DNA of 64,000 nucleotides, taken from an uncultured delta proteobacterium (GTDB taxonomy: Bacteria > Desulfobacterota > RBG-13-43-22). Location of the stretch: assembly GCA_963743305.1 (NCBI GenBank), contig CAVUPH010000022.1:1-64000 (forward strand). The letters are read 5' to 3'. The position numbers were made by a program, and so were the translations under genes. The notes beneath the pieces were generated by a model. That model saw only the letters and a program-made list of their open reading frames with translations. It made no database searches and had not been told where the DNA came from. Below, in pieces: positions 6,344 to 13,510 of this stretch (position 1 is the first letter of the stretch; each line of letters begins with the position of its first letter).

Positions 6344-6375
6344 AAACGGCCGATTTTTGCTGAAACGGGGGTTCT

Positions 6376-9300
6376 ATGGAAATTCTTGGTCCTGCGGGTA
6401 AGATTGCCAAGGCCTTTATCCAATCGAAGCTTACCCCACTCATCGTGGTGGCCTCGATCCTGCTCGGCGTTTTTGCCGTGGTCGTTACACCCCGGGAAGA
6501 AGAGCCGCAGATCGTGGTGCCGATGATCGATGTTCTGGTCTCCTATCCGGGCGCCTCGGCCCAGGAGGTGGACGAACGGGTGACCAAACCCATGTCAAAA
6601 TTCCTCTGGGAGATCAAGGGCGTCGAGTACATCTATTCTATCTCCAAACCCGGCATGAGCCTGGCCATCGTGCGTTTCTATGTCGGGCAGGACATGGAAA
6701 AAAGCCTGGTCGATCTCTATAACAAGCTGATGTCCAATTACGACAAGATCCCTCCGGGTGTTTCCCGGCCGCTGGTGAAACCGAAGTCTATCGATGATGT
6801 GCCCATCACCGCTTTCACCCTCTGGAGTTCCCGGTACAGCGGGTACGAGCTCCGGCGGGTGGCCCTGGAAGTGTGCAATGAGCTCAAGAAGGATGCGGAC
6901 GTCGCCGAGTTCCAGGTTATCGGCGGCCAAAAGCGGCAGCTTAAAATCTCCATCGACCCCTTGCGCCTCCGGGCCTACTCCCTGGCGCCCCTCCAAATTG
7001 CCGCGGCCGTCGGAAACAGCCAATGTGGCCCTGCCTTCGGGAAATTTTGCGAACCAGAATACCGAATTCATTGTTCAAACCGGGGCACTGCTTAAGAATG
7101 CGGACGAGGTGGGCAATCTGGTGATAGCGGTAAAAGACGGAAGGCCCGTCTACCTGAAGGACGTGGCCCGAATCAGTGACGGTCCGGAAGAACCCTCCAA
7201 TTATGTGTTCATGGGTTTCGGGCCGGCAGGCCGCAAGGACCGGACCGGCCTTTACGAAGCGGTCACCATTTCCATGGCCAAGAAGAAGGGGACCAACGCC
7301 ACCCATATCGCCGAAAGAGCCCTGAAAAAGATTGAAGCCCTGAAGGGCCGGGTGATCCCTTCCGGCGTAGAGGTAACCATCACCCGCAATTACGGCGAGA
7401 CGGCCAAAGATAAATCGGATGAACTCCTCAAGCATATGCTCCTGGCCGCGATCTCCGTAACCTTGCTGATCGCTCTGGCGCTGGGTTGGCGGGAATCGAT
7501 CGTCGTGGCGGTTGCGGTGCCGGTGACCCTGGCCCTGACCATCCTGGTCACTTATGCCTACGGGTATACCCTGAACCGGGTGACCCTCTTCGCCCTGATC
7601 TTCTCCATCGGCATTCTGGTGGATGACGCCATTGTGGTGGTCGAGAATATTCACCGTCACTTCAAAATGAGCCGGGTGGACCCGGAAATCGCCGTGTTTG
7701 CCGTCGATGAGGTCGGAAATCCGACCATTCTGGCCACCTTTGCCGTCATTGCCGCCCTCTTGCCCATGGCTTTCGTCTCCGGTCTCATGGGCCCCTACAT
7801 GAGACCCATTCCCGTCGGCGCCTCGGCCGCCATGGTGCTGTCTCTGCTCATCGCCTTCATTGTCAGCCCCTGGCTGAGTTATATCGTCCTGAGAAAAACC
7901 AAAGCCAAACCGGAGGGGGAAAAAAGCGAGGGCTGGTTGATCGGAAAATTCAACCGCATCTATGAGGGAAATATCCGGGGCCTGCTGAACAACAAAAAGA
8001 AGCGGCTTCGTTTCTATATCCTCATCGGGGCCCTGCTGCTGGGCGCTTTCCTCCTGGTGCCCTTGAAACTGACCCTGGTGAAGATGCTCCCCTTCGACAA
8101 CAAGAGTGAACTTCAGGTGGTGATTGATATGCCGGGGGACCCCAGCCTGGAGGAAACGGCCGCGGTGAGCCGGGGGATCAGCGAGTACCTCCGGACCGTG
8201 CCGGAAGTGAGCAATTACCAAACCTATGTGGGCACCGCGGCGCCCTTTAATTTCAACGGCCTGGTGCGTCACTATTTCCTGCGCAGCGGAGGAAATGTGG
8301 CGGATATCCAGGTCAATTTTGTCTCTAAGGACGAACGGCAGGCCCAGAGTCATGAAATCGCCAAAAGGATCCGGCCGGCCATTAAGGCCATCGGTGACCG
8401 CTACGGCGCCCGGGTGAAGATTGTGGAAATACCGCCCGGCCCTCCGGTCCTGAGCACCTTGGTAGCCGAGGTCTACGGTCCCGACTTCCAGAGACAGCGA
8501 GAAATCGCCGGGACCATTAAAACCATTTTCCAGCGGACGAAGGACGTGGTGGATGTGGACTGGTTGGTGGAGGATGATCAGAAGAAGCTCTTTTTCGACG
8601 TAGACCAGGAAAAGGCGGCCTACCATGGAATCGCCACCGAGACGGTGGCCCGGACGGTTCAGGCGGTTCTGAACGGAATGGTGGTCGGTCAGGGCCATAT
8701 CGCCAAAGATCAGGAACCGGTCGAACTGGTCCTGCAGGCCCCTTTGCCGGATCGAGCCGGTCTGGAACGACTCAAGGAGATCACCCTGACCTCGGCCGCC
8801 GGGGCGCCCGTATCCTTATCCGAACTGGTGAAGGTCCGGGAAACGCTGGAGGACAAGACCATCTATCGGAAAAACCTCAAGCGAGTGGTCTACGTCACCG
8901 GCGAGGTGGCGGGAAAGGAGGAAAGCCCGGTTTATCCCATATTGAAGATGAAGGAGGCCGTCAGTAAGCTTAAACTGCCCGAAGGTTATGAGCTGAAGCA
9001 GTATTCCTCGGTTCAGCCCTGGCTCGAAAACCAATATGCCCTCAAATGGGATGGAGAATGGCATATCACCTACGAGGTTTTTCGGGACCTGGGGATGGCC
9101 TTTGCCGCGGTCCTGATCATCATTTACGTCATGGTGGTGGGCTGGTTTAAATCCTTTCTGGCGCCCCTGGTCATCATGGCCCCCATCCCGCTGTCCCTGA
9201 TCGGGATCCTGCCCGGCCATGCTCTGATGGGGGCCTTCTTCACGGCCACCTCCATGATCGGGTTCATCGCCGGTGCCGGTATCGTGGTGCGGAATTCGAT

Positions 9301-9589
9301 TATCCTGGTGGATTTCATTGATCTCAAGCTGGCCGAGGGCACCGAATTAAAGGAAGCGGTGGTCCAGGCCGGTCTCATTCGCTTTCGACCCATGCTGCTG
9401 ACCGCTGCCGCCGTCGTCGTCGGGTCTTCGGTCATCCTTTTTGATCCCATTTTTCAGGGCATGGCCATCGCCCTCATGTCCGGTGAAGTGGCGGCCACCC
9501 TGCTCTCGCGAACCTTGGTGCCCGTGCTTTACTTTAAGTTGAAGGAGTGGGAACAAAAGAAAAAATTGAAAAAGATGGCCATGGAATGA
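6376..9589 (+). CDS. RND efflux permease (AcrB/CusA family), one frameshift near 7010
   Basis: ORFs 6376..7095 and 6794..9589 join at [16 protein letters not shown]; motifs [32 protein letters not shown]. Confidence 0.9.
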
Positions 9590-9598
9590 TCCTGTTGC

Positions 9599-10076
9599 CT
9601 AACCCCATTTCTCTGCCCTCGGGATTTCTTTTGGGGCTAAGGCGTCCAGCACCCGGCGGACGTCGGCCAGGCATCACCGGCCTTTGGGATTTTTGTGGGC
9701 GCAATCCACCGCCGGCCTTTTTCTCGGCCGCAATCTTTTCCAGGATCAGCGAACGCCCATTTGAAAAAAATCCTTTTCAATATCTTCGCGGGTATACCCG
9801 AAACAGTAACAGACCAGCTCATCCGGCCGGAACCCCGGTGGTTCATCGGTTCTTTCGGAGTGGAAAAATACCCGGCCTGTGACAGCCCTTGGACAATCCG
9901 ATCCATCCCGATCAGTTCCGGATCATATTTCACCCGGGCTTCCTTTTCCGGATAAAAGGCCTCCGCTTCGATGATCCCCGGCAGCCCTGCAGGGCGCCAA
10001 CCACCTTCGGCACTCAACTCATTCAGGTCATGCCTACGACGGTCAATCGGATCGTTTTAAATTTATCGTTTTCCAT
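9599..10076 (-). CDS. Candidate selenoprotein: HMA (CopZ-like, GMT-U-xx-U) domain fused to a Cys-rich Fe-S/Zn metallochaperone domain (...NPKGR-U-C); several indels
   Basis: ATG at 10076: [17 protein letters not shown][TGA 10025-10023]MS[TGA 10016-10014]VPKVVGALQG/LPGIIEAEAFYPEKEARVKYDPELIGMDRIVQGLSQAGY (full HMA fold), then DELVCYCFGYTREDIEKDF/NGRSLILEKIAAEKKAGG/DCAHKNPKGR[TGA 9676-9674]CLADVRRVLD...TAG 9599. SECIS-like hairpins follow the UGAs. Confidence 0.7.
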
Positions 10077-12862
10077 TGGAGTATGTTTTTAAGATACCCT
10101 TTAAGTCTGCGGGATTTTTAGAAACGGCCCAGGCCCACTCCCCGAAACCCCCATGATGATTCACCGCCCTTATCCATTCATCAAGGAACTCCCGCTTCGT
10201 CCGGTCCTGCTGACTGTCCTGGCCTTTTGTTTCCAGACCAGATACCCTTCTTTAAACGTATCAGAAAGTCCGGACGGTATTTGTGGACCACTCCCTGAAA
10301 AAGATAAAGGATCTCGAAACCCAAGTGGTCGTTTTTAACCCAGGCCTCGACCAGGGGGTTTCGCTCCAATTCAAAGGCTTCGCTGGCCTCCCACGTGCTG
10401 TCAAAAACGCAGAGGCTGATATGAGATTTCCGGGTGTATTCGCAGGGCCGACCGGTGTACCAGGTACGCATGTCCCCGGTGGATCGGATAGGGTATTCAT
10501 TGTCAAATACCGGCTCAATGGTCTCGGTATTCTCAAAACGAATCGCCTCCCAGATATGCTGAACCAGTTTGTTCATATTAAGCGTTAGGATGATTCTCCG
10601 GCGAAGCTCCTCCTGATTGAAGAGCTGCGGATTGATGCTGATTTTATCCGAAGTTAAAAATTCCTCCACGATCCGAAATACCTGAATCAGCAAATACTCT
10701 CTGTTCCCTTTCCAGGACGGCTGCATCTGATCATAAATATCCCGGGCGGTTGTGAAGATAATCCGCTGCAGCCGGTTTTTTACCCCCAGTTCTTCCAGGG
10801 TGATCTCGGTTATCTTGGTGATATCGGCCTTCCCCTCCACCACTGGGGCGAGTTCGGCCAGGGTGGCCGTTTGGTAGGCATCCAGTTCCAGCGGTTTAAC
10901 CCGCTTCAGGTCCAGGGTCAGCCGGGGTTTAATAACGTGGTCGATGCGGATGATATTCGGCCAGCTTAACTCAAAATTCCTTTTTTCGCTTACCGGTTCG
11001 ATCCGGGTTTTCGGAGGCGGAGGTGGAGGCGGTGGGCCATCGGTTTTTTCATGGGGTAGAAAGGTGAAGGGCACCCCGAAAATATTCACGTACTCCGGCT
11101 CAATAATCCGGTTTCCGGATTGACCTCGTAAGAAGTTCTTCTCAGCCCCGCGCCCGACACCTGCTCGCACAGCAATTGGCTGGAAAGGCCGAATCCCCAT
11201 GATGTGGGTAACCGTTTTGGCGTCCCAGCCTTCCGAGAGCATACCCACTGAAATGACTTTTTGAATCTGCTCTCCGGGTTTCCCGATTTGGCCGACGGTA
11301 TCCACGGTCTGGCGCAGGAGTTCCGCCTGCTCTTTCCGGCTCAACTTGCGGACGGTTTCTTCTTCCTGATCCTCCTGCTCCGGGTCCGGGGAAGTTTGGG
11401 GCTCCTCCTGGGATTCCGCCATTTCGAGCACCTTCGAATCGATATGCAAAATCTTTTCCGGGTCGCAAAGCTCCTCGATGTCGATTTTGTGGTGATCGAA
11501 GGAATACTTGATGCGGGCCGCGGTCTCGGTTCGATTGGCCACGGAGATCATCACCGGCGGAATTTTAAATCCAACTTCTTCCCAGGATTCCCTGGTGACC
11601 AGCCAGTCTTTTCCCAGCAGGTAATAGCCGTTGACCACCAGTGCCGGTAAGGGCTCAAATTCCGGGGCCTTCCGATTCACGTCATCTTTTACTTCCGGAT
11701 CGTTATAAATATGGTACAGCCTCGATTTATAATCCGCTCCCATCGCGCCGTCGTCCCGGATGACCACCCTCGGCGTCTTCACCAATCCCGATTCGATGGC
11801 GTCATTCAACCCGAAGTCGCTGACGATCCAGGCAAAGAGGGCCTCTTCCGAACTTTTCTTGCCGGAGGGGGCCAGTGGAGTGGCCGAAAAATCATAACAG
11901 GCCAGGATGTTTCTCGCCTGGTGGATCCGGTCCAGACCGTTGATCCAGACCGTGGCCTCTTCAATTTCCTCCTTCTTAAGGCCTTTGATCTTGGATTCGG
12001 CCGGGACCCGCCAGGCATGATGGGCCTCATCGTTGATGACGAGTAAGTTGGAGGCCTGGGCCAGCTCCCCCAAAACTTCCCGGGCATAAGCCTCGTTGCT
12101 CTTGGCCCCGCGTTTGTCCACACTTTTCTTTCTGGCGATTTTTTCTTCCGTTTCCCAATGAAGGGTATGCCAGTTTCGAACCAGGACTTTCCCTTGCCTT
12201 AACTTCTCCTTGAGTCCCGAAGGGACGATATTAAATTCATCGTAATAATTCGGTTGGGCCGAGGGATAGAGCACCTGCAAACGGTTTTTCACCGTCAATC
12301 CCGGGGCGACCACGAAAATGTTTTTTGAAAAACGGCTGTCTTGAGGATAGGTGACCTTATTTAAAACCTGCCAGGAAATCAGCATGGCCATGACGATGGT
12401 CTTGCCGGAGCCGGTGGCCATCTTGGAGCAAAGTCTTTTGAATAATCCTCCATCGGAGGGGATATCCACTCCGACCTTCTCCGCCTCCGGGGCCTCCAGC
12501 AGCCAGATGAGGGTTTCCATGGCCTCCAACTGGCAGAAAAAAAGACGGCGATAGCTTTCCCGCTCTTCGGCGTTATTCCAGTGATCGAGCAGTCTGCGGG
12601 TGATCCCGGTAACCCCGGCATAAGGAAGAGAAGGATGCTCCCGCCAGGCCTTCACCCGTCGGCGGATTTCGTTGACCAGCGGAATTTCGATGAATATTCC
12701 CGGATCGTCAAAGGCTTTGGAGGACTCCGAGGCAATCACGTATCCGGCCGGCCTCCGGCCTTCCTTGCGATCAAATAACCGGCTCTCCCGGTCATAGCTC
12801 CAATACTGCCCAGGCTCTTCGTAGGGGGAATTGATGATAAGTTGATCGATGGAAGCCTTCAC
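10063..12862 (-). CDS. Type III restriction endonuclease Res subunit (DEAD/DEAH helicase plus PD-(D/E)xK nuclease); indels near 11100-11190 and 10240
   Basis: [38 protein letters not shown]. The corrected C-terminus LETKGQD...[16 protein letters not shown] ends at TAA 10063, overlapping the HMA gene start. Confidence 0.85.
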
Positions 12863-13206
12863 TTATTTTCTTCTTCTTGAAAGATGCGTTCACCTTTATC
12901 TATTAAATCAGGGATCGAAAATTGAACGGCATTCCATACTTCATCCAGGTCAATATAATCATAGGCATGGATTAAAATATCCCGCATGCCGGCCATCTTT
13001 TTCCAGGGAATTTCGGGGTATCTTTCTTTAAATTCTTCAGGTAAGCGTTTGGCCGCCTCTCCCATCAACTCGATCTGCCGAATCACACCGGATTGAACCA
13101 GCTCATTAGTTTCAAATCGGACTCTATCAACGCCTTCCGTAAATTTGAGCACCAGTCTCGCCGCGGTTAATATGTCTAAAAGATATCCCAACTCATTCTT
13201 GGACAT
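12859..13206 (-). CDS. HepT-like HEPN ribonuclease toxin (DUF86)
   Basis: [13 protein letters not shown]...[31 protein letters not shown], carrying the RX4HXY motif. Confidence 0.85.
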
Positions 13207-13510
13207 AGTAAGGCTCCACCGATTCCAGAATGGCTTTCCTGCGGATATAATTTCTGCTTTTTTCAACAGCATTCCGGGTGATCAAATCGACCTTTCTTTT
13301 AAAAATATTTTGTAGTTCTTCCTGCATATCCACATGATCGAACAAGGTATGCCGGGCCTCAGGATAAAAAGAAACCAAAACATCGACATCGCTATCCGGT
13401 TTGAAATCTTTCCTCAAAACCGATCCGAAGAAAGACAATTCCTTGATTTTCCATTTTCGGCAATAGGCCTCGATTTGTTCCTGAGGCATCTTCAGATGTA
13501 AATCATCCAT
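13193..13510 (-). CDS. MntA-like minimal nucleotidyltransferase antitoxin
   Basis: [20 protein letters not shown] (GSX10DXD) and RKVDL; overlaps the HEPN gene. Confidence 0.85.

Follow-up and report, generated by a model that had tools for sequence, protein, structure and literature searches.

A locus for a predicted three-selenocysteine protein that joins a U-x-x-U heavy-metal-associated domain to a CopZ-type [2Fe-2S] domain in an uncultured member of the Desulfobacterota

The CopZ protein of Archaeoglobus fulgidus is said, in work attributed to Sazinsky et al. in 2007, to consist of an N-terminal Zn/[2Fe-2S] domain fused to a heavy-metal-associated (HMA) domain, and its Fe-S domain has reportedly been proposed to act in the supply or removal of electrons. 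Selenocysteine (Sec) variants of both kinds of module have been catalogued separately. The NCBIfam family NF041115 (UxxU_metal_bind, "metal-binding (seleno)protein") consists of stand-alone proteins of about 74 aa with the HMA fold in which both Cys of the metal-binding motif are replaced by Sec, and in NF045877 (CopZ_Nterm_CU) a domain of the CopZ N-terminal type has Sec at one position of its terminal Cys pair. A CopZ-family (2Fe-2S)-binding selenoprotein, form 1 (GxUC), is tabulated in PMC13188914, with Zhang and Gladyshev 2008 as the source.

The locus described here lies on the minus strand of the window, by which is meant the whole stretch of 64,000 nucleotides that was analyzed (positions 1 to 64,000 of the forward strand of contig CAVUPH010000022.1, assembly GCA_963743305.1, from an uncultured delta proteobacterium of the Desulfobacterota lineage RBG-13-43-22). 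The encoded protein resembles A. fulgidus CopZ (2HU9) in having an HMA domain and a BFD-like [2Fe-2S] domain in one polypeptide, with the C-Y-C and NP-x-G-R-C-C motifs aligned, but it differs in that the order is reversed, the HMA domain being first, in that it lacks the part of the N-terminal domain that binds Zn, and in that three Sec stand in place of Cys and there is an extra invariant Cys (C-D-C, compared with W-C in 2HU9). Its first domain has the fold and the motif position of the HMA metallochaperones MerP, CopZ, and Atx1, but these have Cys rather than Sec and no Fe-S domain. With NF041115 it shares the HMA fold and the replacement of both motif Cys by Sec, but the fusion scores 50.1–56.0 bits against a cut-off of 95 and adds a domain with a third Sec. 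The likeness to the GxUC selenoprotein (cd10141) is one of motif and pattern, the same G-x-U-C and Cys pattern being present in both, but in the present protein a UxxU HMA domain precedes it in the same polypeptide. NF045877 is similar in its domain type and its single Sec in the terminal pair; however, the order is C-U according to the family name and the PMC13188914 table and U-C here, and scores are listed for two of the three orthologues, at 13.9–21.2 bits against a cut-off of 190.

Thus both modules belong to selenoprotein families that are already catalogued, whereas the three-Sec fusion was not found in the catalogues that were searched. No printed mention of an HMA-UxxU/GxUC fusion was found in literature searches or in the accessible portions of reviews including PMC13188914, and a term search of the accessible part of BSepDB (PMC13326102) gave no match. 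The main text of Zhang and Gladyshev 2007 and 2008, as far as it was accessible, holds no passage on mercuric reductase, CopZ, or 2Fe-2S, and the supplements may list such families. The initial annotation had suggested that the gene would be overlooked by automated annotation and that UxxU sites are rare; the gene is indeed missed by gene callers, but the second part needs to be qualified in view of the catalogued UxxU HMA and GxUC CopZ-family selenoproteins.

As assembled, the gene extends from an ATG at 10076 to a stop codon at 9601–9599 and is read in frames 1, 0, 2, 1, and 2 owing to four breaks. These limits are based on six-frame reading, on DNA alignment with orthologous loci in the related metagenome-assembled genomes G002, G003, and G007, and on the single-frame orthologues. 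The coding features are as follows.

9599..10076, minus strand: whole gene as assembled
9850..10076, minus strand: ferredoxin-like HMA domain with the motif GMT-U-MS-U
10023..10025, minus strand: first in-frame UGA, in place of the leading Cys of the HMA CxxC motif
10014..10016, minus strand: second in-frame UGA, in place of the other Cys of this CxxC motif
9640..9838, minus strand: short CopZ-N-terminal/BFD-like [2Fe-2S] domain, C-Y-C ... C-D-C ... NPKGR-U-C
9674..9676, minus strand: third in-frame UGA, where CopZ N-terminal domains have the first Cys of their CC pair, in the window frame DCAHKNPKGR*CLADV

The initial annotation held that both Cys positions of the HMA CxxC motif are TGA (at 10025 and 10016) and that three UGAs falling on conserved Cys are hard to ascribe to decay. 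The two codons are indeed in one frame of the minus strand, and the pattern goes beyond chance, since G002, G003, and G007 each have the gene as a single open frame interrupted by TGA at these three places (3/3 orthologous loci). The third TGA is kept in 30/30 aligned sequences. The G-x-U-C motif occurs as GR-U-C in the window and is shared by G003, G007, and 26 stand-alone loci, with GR-U-G in G002. An alternation of UGA and Cys, for which a search of homologues had been proposed, was also seen: the UGAs are matched by the CxxC of the HMA family, by the leading Cys of the 2HU9 motif GRCC, and by the CC pair in a Cys-containing homologue (L087). A scan of the genome collection found the gene in G002, G003, and G007 and in no others, and a metagenome scan with peptide patterns containing Cys codons returned only Cys-type HMA proteins of ≤48% identity. 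Stand-alone GxUC modules occur in about 40 of 400 other genomes of the phylum that were sampled, and an intact stand-alone GxUC paralogue is present on contig C42 of the window genome itself.

It is very unlikely that the TGAs are ordinary stops, so that the locus would contain only fragments or small unrelated ORFs and no selenocysteine. Gene callers do end 67 of the 80 protein-database relatives that were returned immediately ahead of the third Sec, and another 4 stop at this point with a variant motif; the reading of the TGAs as Sec is a prediction from sequence. Against this, coding conservation extends through all three TGAs in 3/3 orthologues, with dN/dS values of 0.15–0.32 over 142 codons, each TGA coincides with a Cys of either the HMA or the CopZ-N-terminal family, the third TGA is followed by a hairpin with covariation support, and a tRNA-Sec, SelB, and SelD are present, as discussed below. 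A genome-wide reassignment of TGA, for example to Trp or Gly, has so low a probability that it can nearly be neglected. Two relatives of about 50% identity, P0024 and P0025, are full length and are written with W at all three TGA positions, and the clade to which they belong was not found in 21 genomes of the order and class or in the phylum sample; but TGA ends 482 of the 1325 ORFs of at least 400 codons in the window genome and is thus an ordinary stop there, the in-frame TGAs are on Cys positions only, and tRNA-Sec and SelB would be at odds with such a code change.

With TGA translated as Cys, the pieces of the window copy match Pfam HMA at 18.2 bits (profile positions 2–21) and 18.5 bits (23–61), and they also match Fer2_BFD at 17.1 bits; since the frame changes divide the gene, none of these scores reaches its cut-off. 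The intact orthologues score 40.5–48.3 bits on PF00403 (HMA), above the cut-off of 24.8, in agreement with the HMA domain that had been proposed. The secondary structure of the AF2 model of this domain agrees with the β-α-β-β-α-β fold, and its top Foldseek matches are MerP 1afi (E 3e-5, TM 0.72 normalized to target) and 1osd. For the second domain, the three orthologues score 19.7, 21.3, and 26.6 bits on Fer2_BFD (PF04324), for which the cut-off is 26, and on NF047645 (CopZ_Nterm_CC) they match only profile positions 84–137 of 138, with 46.6–53.2 bits against a cut-off of 100; L087 passes the latter model with 111.6 bits. The Cys pattern of the second domain does not vary among 28 sequences. 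A profile of this domain matches 2HU9, the N-terminal domain of Archaeoglobus CopZ, with an E value of 2.3e-10 and places U opposite the first Cys of GRCC; this match was obtained through the profile, whereas phmmer with the full protein against PDB sequences returned HMA domains only. The AF2 model of the second domain has a pLDDT of 94.4, and its two top Foldseek ranks are the expected folds, 2hu9_B first and Bfd 4e6k_G (E 0.95) second, although the scores are weak, with no match at E ≤0.001. The initial annotation had seen here a Zn/[2Fe-2S] domain of the Archaeoglobus CopZ type; the profile match upholds the [2Fe-2S] half, but it is the only half present.

Three hairpins that had been quoted as SECIS-like were located in the sequence, at 10013–9994, 9993–9977, and 9661–9644.

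9994..10013, minus strand: hairpin H1, 7 bp, loop AGGUGG, directly after the second UGA
9977..9993, minus strand: hairpin H2, 7 bp, with the loop GGGC in relatives, putative SECIS of the two UxxU codons
9644..9661, minus strand: SECIS-type hairpin after the third UGA, 5-bp core, loop CNGGUN

The third of these hairpins is kept in 30 sequences, with 149 of 150 cells of the core paired, compensatory change in 2 pairs, 4 cells changed on both sides, and GU, AU, and GC variants of the third pair. Its covariation score is 0.240 compared with 0.165 in shuffles (0/500 reach it), and the structure is paired in 88% of cells, compared with 29–61% in slid controls. The window copy has one C·C mismatch in this stem (9656 with 9649) and is not the minimum-energy fold (z-score −0.07). 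H1 and H2 are paired in 25/28 and 27/28 cells, respectively, over 4 sequences, but they have no compensatory change and overlap a conserved peptide motif. H2 lacks one G in the window, and its sole break in pairing coincides with a 1-nt gap in the window copy; its fold z-score is −2.35 in G003 compared with −0.62 in the window. A SECIS-type hairpin is supported for the third UGA as a family feature, but H1 and H2 are without covariation and the third stem of the window copy is mismatched.

The window genome (G000) encodes a tRNA-Sec (selC) that scores 75.1 bits and is called SeC(tca) by aragorn, a SelB within an open frame of 657 aa, and a SelD that has an in-frame TGA of its own, indicating a Sec-containing protein. 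Of the selA, selB, selC, and selD genes on which the initial annotation had made its proposal depend, three were thus found, but two HMMs and tblastn did not find selA in this assembly, which is 90% complete; selA is present in 4/4 relatives. The reading of the locus as a single protein that gene callers overlook, with a U-x-x-U site in its HMA domain and a U-C pair in its Fe-S domain of the CopZ type, is supported by the intact orthologues, the truncation of relatives at the third Sec, the match with 2HU9, the hairpin after the third UGA, and selB, selC, and selD.

The breaks in the window copy were placed by DNA alignment with G002, G003, and G007.

9990..9991, minus strand: break 1, 1-nt gap (CTGGCA in relatives, CTGCA in the window)
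9844..9845, minus strand: break 2, 37-nt gap in the inter-domain linker
9753..9761, minus strand: break 3, 1-nt gap, the exact place of which varies with the guide relative
9706..9709, minus strand: break 4, two single bases missing in the codons for GGCDC

A gap of 37 nt is atypical for a base-calling error. The initial annotation had envisaged a protein of about 160 aa after correction of four small deletions, mostly in homopolymers. There are four changes near the named places, but one is of 37 nt, most are outside homopolymers, and the intact protein would have about 172 residues. P0014, a protein from the database, runs without interruption through the places of all four breaks; it reads ALAGLPG across break 1 and has 12–13 extra linker residues at break 2, the flanks of which are identical with the window in 46/47 and 26/26 residues. 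Of the other window pieces, the third, which was scored against P0021 instead, is identical in 18/19 residues and the last matches P0014 in 10/10, and no amino acid difference from P0014 is seen except in the first and last residues of pieces, at the frame breaks.

An examination of reads had been proposed as a check. The public run with the best cover of the window contains 0.17 of the sampled words, and a contig identical to the window covers break 4 only, there being none such at breaks 1–3. This contig, from public run X2, extends over 9645–9734 (90 nt) with 0 mismatches, keeps the third TGA, and has two inserted G behind 9706 and 9708 (plus strand) that restore GGCDC. The check thus corrects break 4 but says nothing as to breaks 1–3; record 15 of contig X7 ends at 9990 and is uninformative on break 1.

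In the assembly, 29 of 258 conserved ORFs carry frame changes, selD among them, and contig C13 has three frame changes within 1.4 kb, in conserved metabolic genes. We consider it quite likely that the four breaks are artefacts, errors of an indel-prone assembly of the long-read type. It should be recognized that the copy in the window might instead be a genuine, very recent pseudogene that has decayed together with a neighboring restriction-enzyme gene, the strain perhaps being on the way to giving up selenocysteine, a possibility that we regard as unlikely but appreciable. The density of breaks would fit such decay, the four in 0.48 kb being about 80 times the average of 0.099 per kb for the conserved ORFs of the assembly (301.7 kb), and the length of the second gap and the result for selA point in the same direction. 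The adjacent restriction-enzyme gene (Res) is broken in the window and in G002, with a remnant only in G003, and in other samples deletion fusions (P0026 and P0060) have destroyed the three-Sec gene; therefore, decay at this locus does happen. One of the two residue changes specific to G000, V to L, also gives rise to the mismatch in the third SECIS stem. However, these two are the only amino acid changes among 25 nucleotide changes specific to G000, so that change in this lineage is almost all synonymous, and five neutral indels should bring many substitutions, whereas the pieces do not differ from the near-identical P0014 beyond their ends. The identity of the X2 contig apart from two restored bases, the abundance of indels in the assembly with its second cluster in metabolic genes, and the intact state of the tRNA-Sec, SelB, and the stand-alone Sec paralogue likewise speak against a pseudogene. 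Since the breaks are most likely assembly errors, the organism probably has an intact gene, and on balance the locus probably represents a cytoplasmic three-Sec selenoprotein of the metallochaperone type, for which the metal and Fe-S roles are predicted.

A functional link with the RND efflux operon next to the gene was rejected, since its permease scores best as a generic/multidrug RND protein, with 350 bits (cut-off 1250), and reaches only 196 as CusA/CzcA. No metal-specific neighbor was found, and no sigma-70-like promoter was found in 9400–10500.

In the three-Sec protein envisaged here, the N-terminal HMA domain would carry a U-x-x-U site in place of the usual C-x-x-C, and a flexible linker would join it to the short domain of the BFD/CopZ-N-terminal type. 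The two selenols may be ligands for a soft metal, for instance Cu(I) or Hg(II). The second domain is predicted to bind a [2Fe-2S] cluster through the Cys pattern C-x-C ... C ... C; Sec is the residue next to the last of these ligands (G-x-U-C), on its N-terminal side, and there is a further Cys that is invariant. By analogy with Archaeoglobus CopZ, this domain may give or take electrons, by which the easily oxidized diselenide would be kept reduced or the bound metal would be reduced. H2 probably serves both of the closely spaced UGAs.

These results bear on the annotation of such genes. Truncated fragments account for 71/80 of the database entries, some of them labeled "copper chaperone CopZ," "cation transport ATPase," or "hypothetical protein," and the fusion passes the cut-off of no NCBIfam model; current annotation therefore under-reports the three-Sec family. 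With 29/258 conserved ORFs changed in frame, apparent gene decay in this metagenome-assembled genome calls for a check against reads ahead of any interpretation.

It may tentatively be suggested that such proteins form a family found in many metagenome assemblies from anaerobic sediment and soil, in which a diselenolate HMA site is permanently coupled to a [2Fe-2S] center flanked by the third Sec. The protein would then be a redox-active handler, and no mere passive carrier, by which Hg(II), Cu, or some other soft metal(loid) is reduced or transferred, and the UGA pair would share a single SECIS. Selenocysteine as a metal ligand in chaperones has been predicted but not studied biochemically. 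The fusion would also test how two UGAs only two codons apart are decoded, and in combining a U-x-x-U site with a Sec-bearing Fe-S domain it would offer a compact system in which to ask what selenolates add to metal trafficking.

The gene under study is read on the minus strand from an ATG at position 10076 to a stop at 9601-9599, and its predicted product consists of an HMA domain with a U-x-x-U motif, a linker, and a CopZ-N-terminal/BFD-like [2Fe-2S] domain with a G-x-U-C motif. The three in-frame TGA codons that the initial annotation had reported in this region were confirmed at the following positions.

10025-10023 and 10016-10014, minus strand: first and second in-frame TGA, in the ORF reading from the ATG at 10076
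9676-9674, minus strand: third in-frame TGA, in a different frame, within the text DCAHKNPKGR-TGA-CLADV

Reading the gene as a single protein requires four frame shifts (1 to 0 to 2 to 1 to 2). With TGA taken as Cys, the resulting pieces match Pfam HMA with 18.2 bits (profile positions 2-21) and 18.5 bits (23-61) and Fer2_BFD with 17.1 bits; these scores are under the cut-offs because the gene is fragmented.

The core of the initial interpretation, that the three UGAs lie in frame within a genuine gene, is supported by its orthologues. A DNA search of 40 relatives and the window's own genome (G000) located the gene in three related MAGs, G002, G003, and G007 (77, 75, and 72% identity to the window copy, respectively), each of which has one open frame with TGA at the identical three positions and coding sequence kept on both sides of every TGA. 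The orthologues score 40.5-48.3 bits with Pfam HMA (cut-off 24.8) and 19.7-26.6 bits with Fer2_BFD (cut-off 26), and pairwise dN/dS is 0.15-0.32 (142 codons). The fusion is present in 4 of the 21 species genomes that make up the order and class of the host, the window genome included, and a scan of the genome collection returned the same three MAGs only. The protein database contains 80 relatives at E ≤ 1e-5, of which 67 stop exactly one residue before the third Sec (...NPKGR) and a further 4 stop at the same site with a variant motif; most start just past the second Sec, leaving the middle fragment visible to gene callers. Metagenomes thus commonly contain the fusion family, and annotation nearly always truncates it. 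In two of these relatives, P0024 and P0025 (∼50% identity), W is written for TGA, and the whole architecture is seen, with TGA at all three positions. The C-terminal tails of the ORFs in G003 and G007 (loci L019 and L020) extend into a repeated, AT-rich motif (in translation ...RNSKFE.../...IRNSKHEIRNK...). This motif also closes an unrelated GntR-like ORF of G002 (L176) and probably represents a family of intergenic repeats in the host lineage.

For the G003 protein, AF2 modeling (pLDDT 82.7) gave an HMA domain of ferredoxin-like fold, joined through a disordered linker (pLDDT under 50 at residues 80-88) to a helical second domain; the best Foldseek matches of the model are MerP (1afi and 1osd), followed by further HMA domains. 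The second-domain profile matches the N-terminal domain of Archaeoglobus fulgidus CopZ (2HU9) with an E value of 2.3e-10, in an alignment that places C-Y-C on C-Y-C and G-R-U-C on G-R-C-C. In a Foldseek search with the model of this domain (pLDDT 94.4), the two top-ranked structures were 2hu9_B and, after it, the [2Fe-2S] ferredoxin Bfd (4e6k_G), both as weak matches (E 0.3 and 0.95). The match to the NCBIfam model CopZ_Nterm_CC (46.6-53.2 bits, cut-off 100) is confined to positions 84-137 of 138, so that the second domain corresponds to the Fe-S half alone and lacks the Zn-binding half. Five of the six Cys/Sec positions are invariant in 28 aligned sequences (C-x-C, C-x-C, and U), and the Cys following U is at least 90% conserved, being replaced by Gly in G002. 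The four residues that ligate the 2HU9 cluster were reportedly identified by Sazinsky and colleagues in 2007; judged by that ligand set, the Sec of the second domain presumably lies beside a predicted cluster ligand and is not itself a ligand. The third Sec site of G002 (L018) reads G-R-U-G and the other 29 aligned sequences all have U-C; a Cys following Sec is therefore not strictly required.

TGA is a normal stop codon in G000, where it ends 482 of 1325 ORFs of at least 400 codons. The initial annotation had named selA, selB, selC, and selD as a check on the selenocysteine reading. The genome contains a tRNA-Sec (75.1 bits on RF01852; aragorn call SeC(tca)), SelB (SelB-wing_3 domain, 76.5 bits, within a 657-aa open frame), and selD (contig C26, 75850-76774), which has its own in-frame TGA (motif G-U-A-S-K) and, through one frame change, occupies two frames, but neither two HMMs nor a tblastn search with the G002 protein found SelA in this 90% complete assembly. 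The selA gene is present in 4 of 4 relatives.

Downstream of the third UGA, an alignment of 30 sequences (the window, the three orthologues, and 26 stand-alone homologues) contains a hairpin that begins 13-14 nt past the UGA. Pairing in the 5-bp core holds for 149 of 150 cells and fails only at a C.C mismatch in the window (9656 with 9649). Two-sided changes are seen at two pairs (4 cells), another pair is GU in 14, AU in 9, and GC in 7 sequences, and the loop has a G kept in at least 90% of the sequences and an invariant U. In a 7-bp version, 88.1% of cells are paired, and sliding the partner lowers this to 29-61%. None of 500 shuffles reached the covariation score (0.240 versus 0.165 shuffled), although kinship alone can outscore shuffles without structure. 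The window's hairpin differs from its minimum-energy fold (z-score −0.07), and a G003 stretch that includes the hairpin, taken from 12 nt before the UGA, has a z-score of −2.06. Two neighboring 7-bp hairpins lie downstream of the UxxU pair. H1 follows the second UGA immediately and has 25 of 28 cells paired; the loop of H2 lies 27 nt past the second UGA and 36 nt past the first, and 27 of its 28 cells pair, the sole break being the window's missing base. No compensatory change was seen in either hairpin in the four sequences, and both overlap a conserved peptide motif, so that a candidate SECIS serving the UxxU pair is at most plausible.

An RND efflux operon (TolC-like gene, adaptor, and permease) flanks the gene in tail-to-tail orientation, and on its opposite side the gene abuts the end of a restriction endonuclease gene.

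6364-9586, plus strand: RND permease gene, a single ORF of 1086-1087 aa in G002 and G003 but changing frame once here, near 7020-7050
10066-12862, minus strand: BPTD_3080-family restriction endonuclease gene (NF046055), whose window copy changes frame at least three times
12859-13510, minus strand: toxin-antitoxin pair upstream of the restriction gene, made up of a HepT-like RNase (94.6 bits) together with an MNT-type nucleotidyltransferase (59.9 bits)

A link to metals through the RND operon was considered and dropped, since the pump scores as a generic type. The restriction gene is also split in G002, and G003 keeps only an N-terminal remnant, directly upstream of the selenoprotein gene. In the database relatives P0026 and P0060, deletions have joined the N terminus of the restriction gene, or HepT, to the C-terminal part of the selenoprotein. 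The locus is therefore deletion-prone.

Relative to its relatives the window copy has gaps of 1, 37, 1, and 2 nt. The 37-nt gap is atypical of base-calling errors and the density of breaks is ∼80 times the assembly mean, which, with the damaged restriction gene, the fusions that wreck the three-Sec gene in other samples, and the missing selA, speaks for a recent pseudogene with real breaks. However, a contig from a public sequencing run (X2) matches 9645-9734 with 0 mismatches and, through two additional bases, has the frame and the G-G-C-D-C codons restored, with the third TGA present, and the database protein P0014, identical to the window pieces at 46 of 47 and 26 of 26 residues, is intact across all four break points and includes 12-13 linker residues missing from the window. 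The G000 lineage has 25 nucleotide changes of its own, and only 2 of them alter a residue common to the other three sequences, a pattern unlike neutral decay with five indels. The assembly is also rich in indels elsewhere, with 30 frame changes affecting 29 of 258 conserved ORFs (301.7 kb), selD among the genes hit, and with another cluster of breaks on contig C13 (∼90.4-91.8 kb), where three frame changes lie in 1.4 kb of GlcD-/GlcF-like genes that otherwise have 74-96% amino acid identity to G002, depending on the alignment segment. A pseudogene is an improbable explanation, and it is likely that the four breaks are assembly artefacts; the copy in the window probably reflects an intact gene damaged in assembly.

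The novelty originally claimed for the gene was too high. Both modules, the UxxU metal-binding and the CopZ-family GxUC proteins, are tabled as predicted selenoproteins in a 2026 review (PMC13188914), which includes a form 2 with the motif CU, and the same families appear in a 2022 review (PMC9312934). The fusion is under the cut-off of every NCBIfam model, NF041115, NF047645, and NF045877 each exclude the gene by their own cut-offs, and no mention of an HMA-UxxU/GxUC fusion was found in literature searches or in passages of the two reviews. The gene thus appears, from its sequence, to be new as a domain fusion with three Sec, a variant built from known modules.

The stand-alone GxUC module is far more widespread than the fusion: with an in-frame TGA it gave at least 41 matches, in at least 40 of 400 other genomes sampled from the phylum among the matches listed, besides 161 weaker ones. 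G000 itself has an intact stand-alone paralogue of 103 aa with one in-frame TGA (contig C42, ∼11725-11937; L048:1486-1794, minus strand), downstream of an MFS transporter; the next gene, flavodoxin-like, seems to shift frame. Among 26 stand-alone loci, an ArsP-type permease is a neighbor in 6 (3 of these with an LMWPc arsenate-reductase-like gene and 1 with ArsR) and a "heavy-metal resistance" protein in 3; GxUC with an ArsP-type permease is a recurrent metal(loid)-resistance neighborhood. At L052, L060, L062, L065, L067, and L074, GxUC genes lie beside an ArsP-type permease and LMWPc arsenate-reductase-like, ArsR, TauE, or cation-efflux genes. In the metagenome contig L087 (1507-2238), a Cys-type HMA ORF ends in TGA, beyond which that frame encodes a full-length CopZ_Nterm_CC protein (111.6 bits); the TGA could separate two adjacent genes or be a read-through or Sec junction.

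HMA and second-domain genes are adjacent as separate genes in genomes G343, G389, G094, and G178 and at L087. Together with the arsenic- and heavy metal-related neighbors, this side-by-side arrangement supports the predictions that the HMA and GxUC modules serve in handling metals or metalloids and that they are functionally connected. The closest characterized protein, Archaeoglobus CopZ, has the same two kinds of domain but differs in its opposite domain order, in having Cys throughout, and in its extra Zn subdomain; by analogy, the three-Sec protein is predicted to work like a CopZ-type chaperone.
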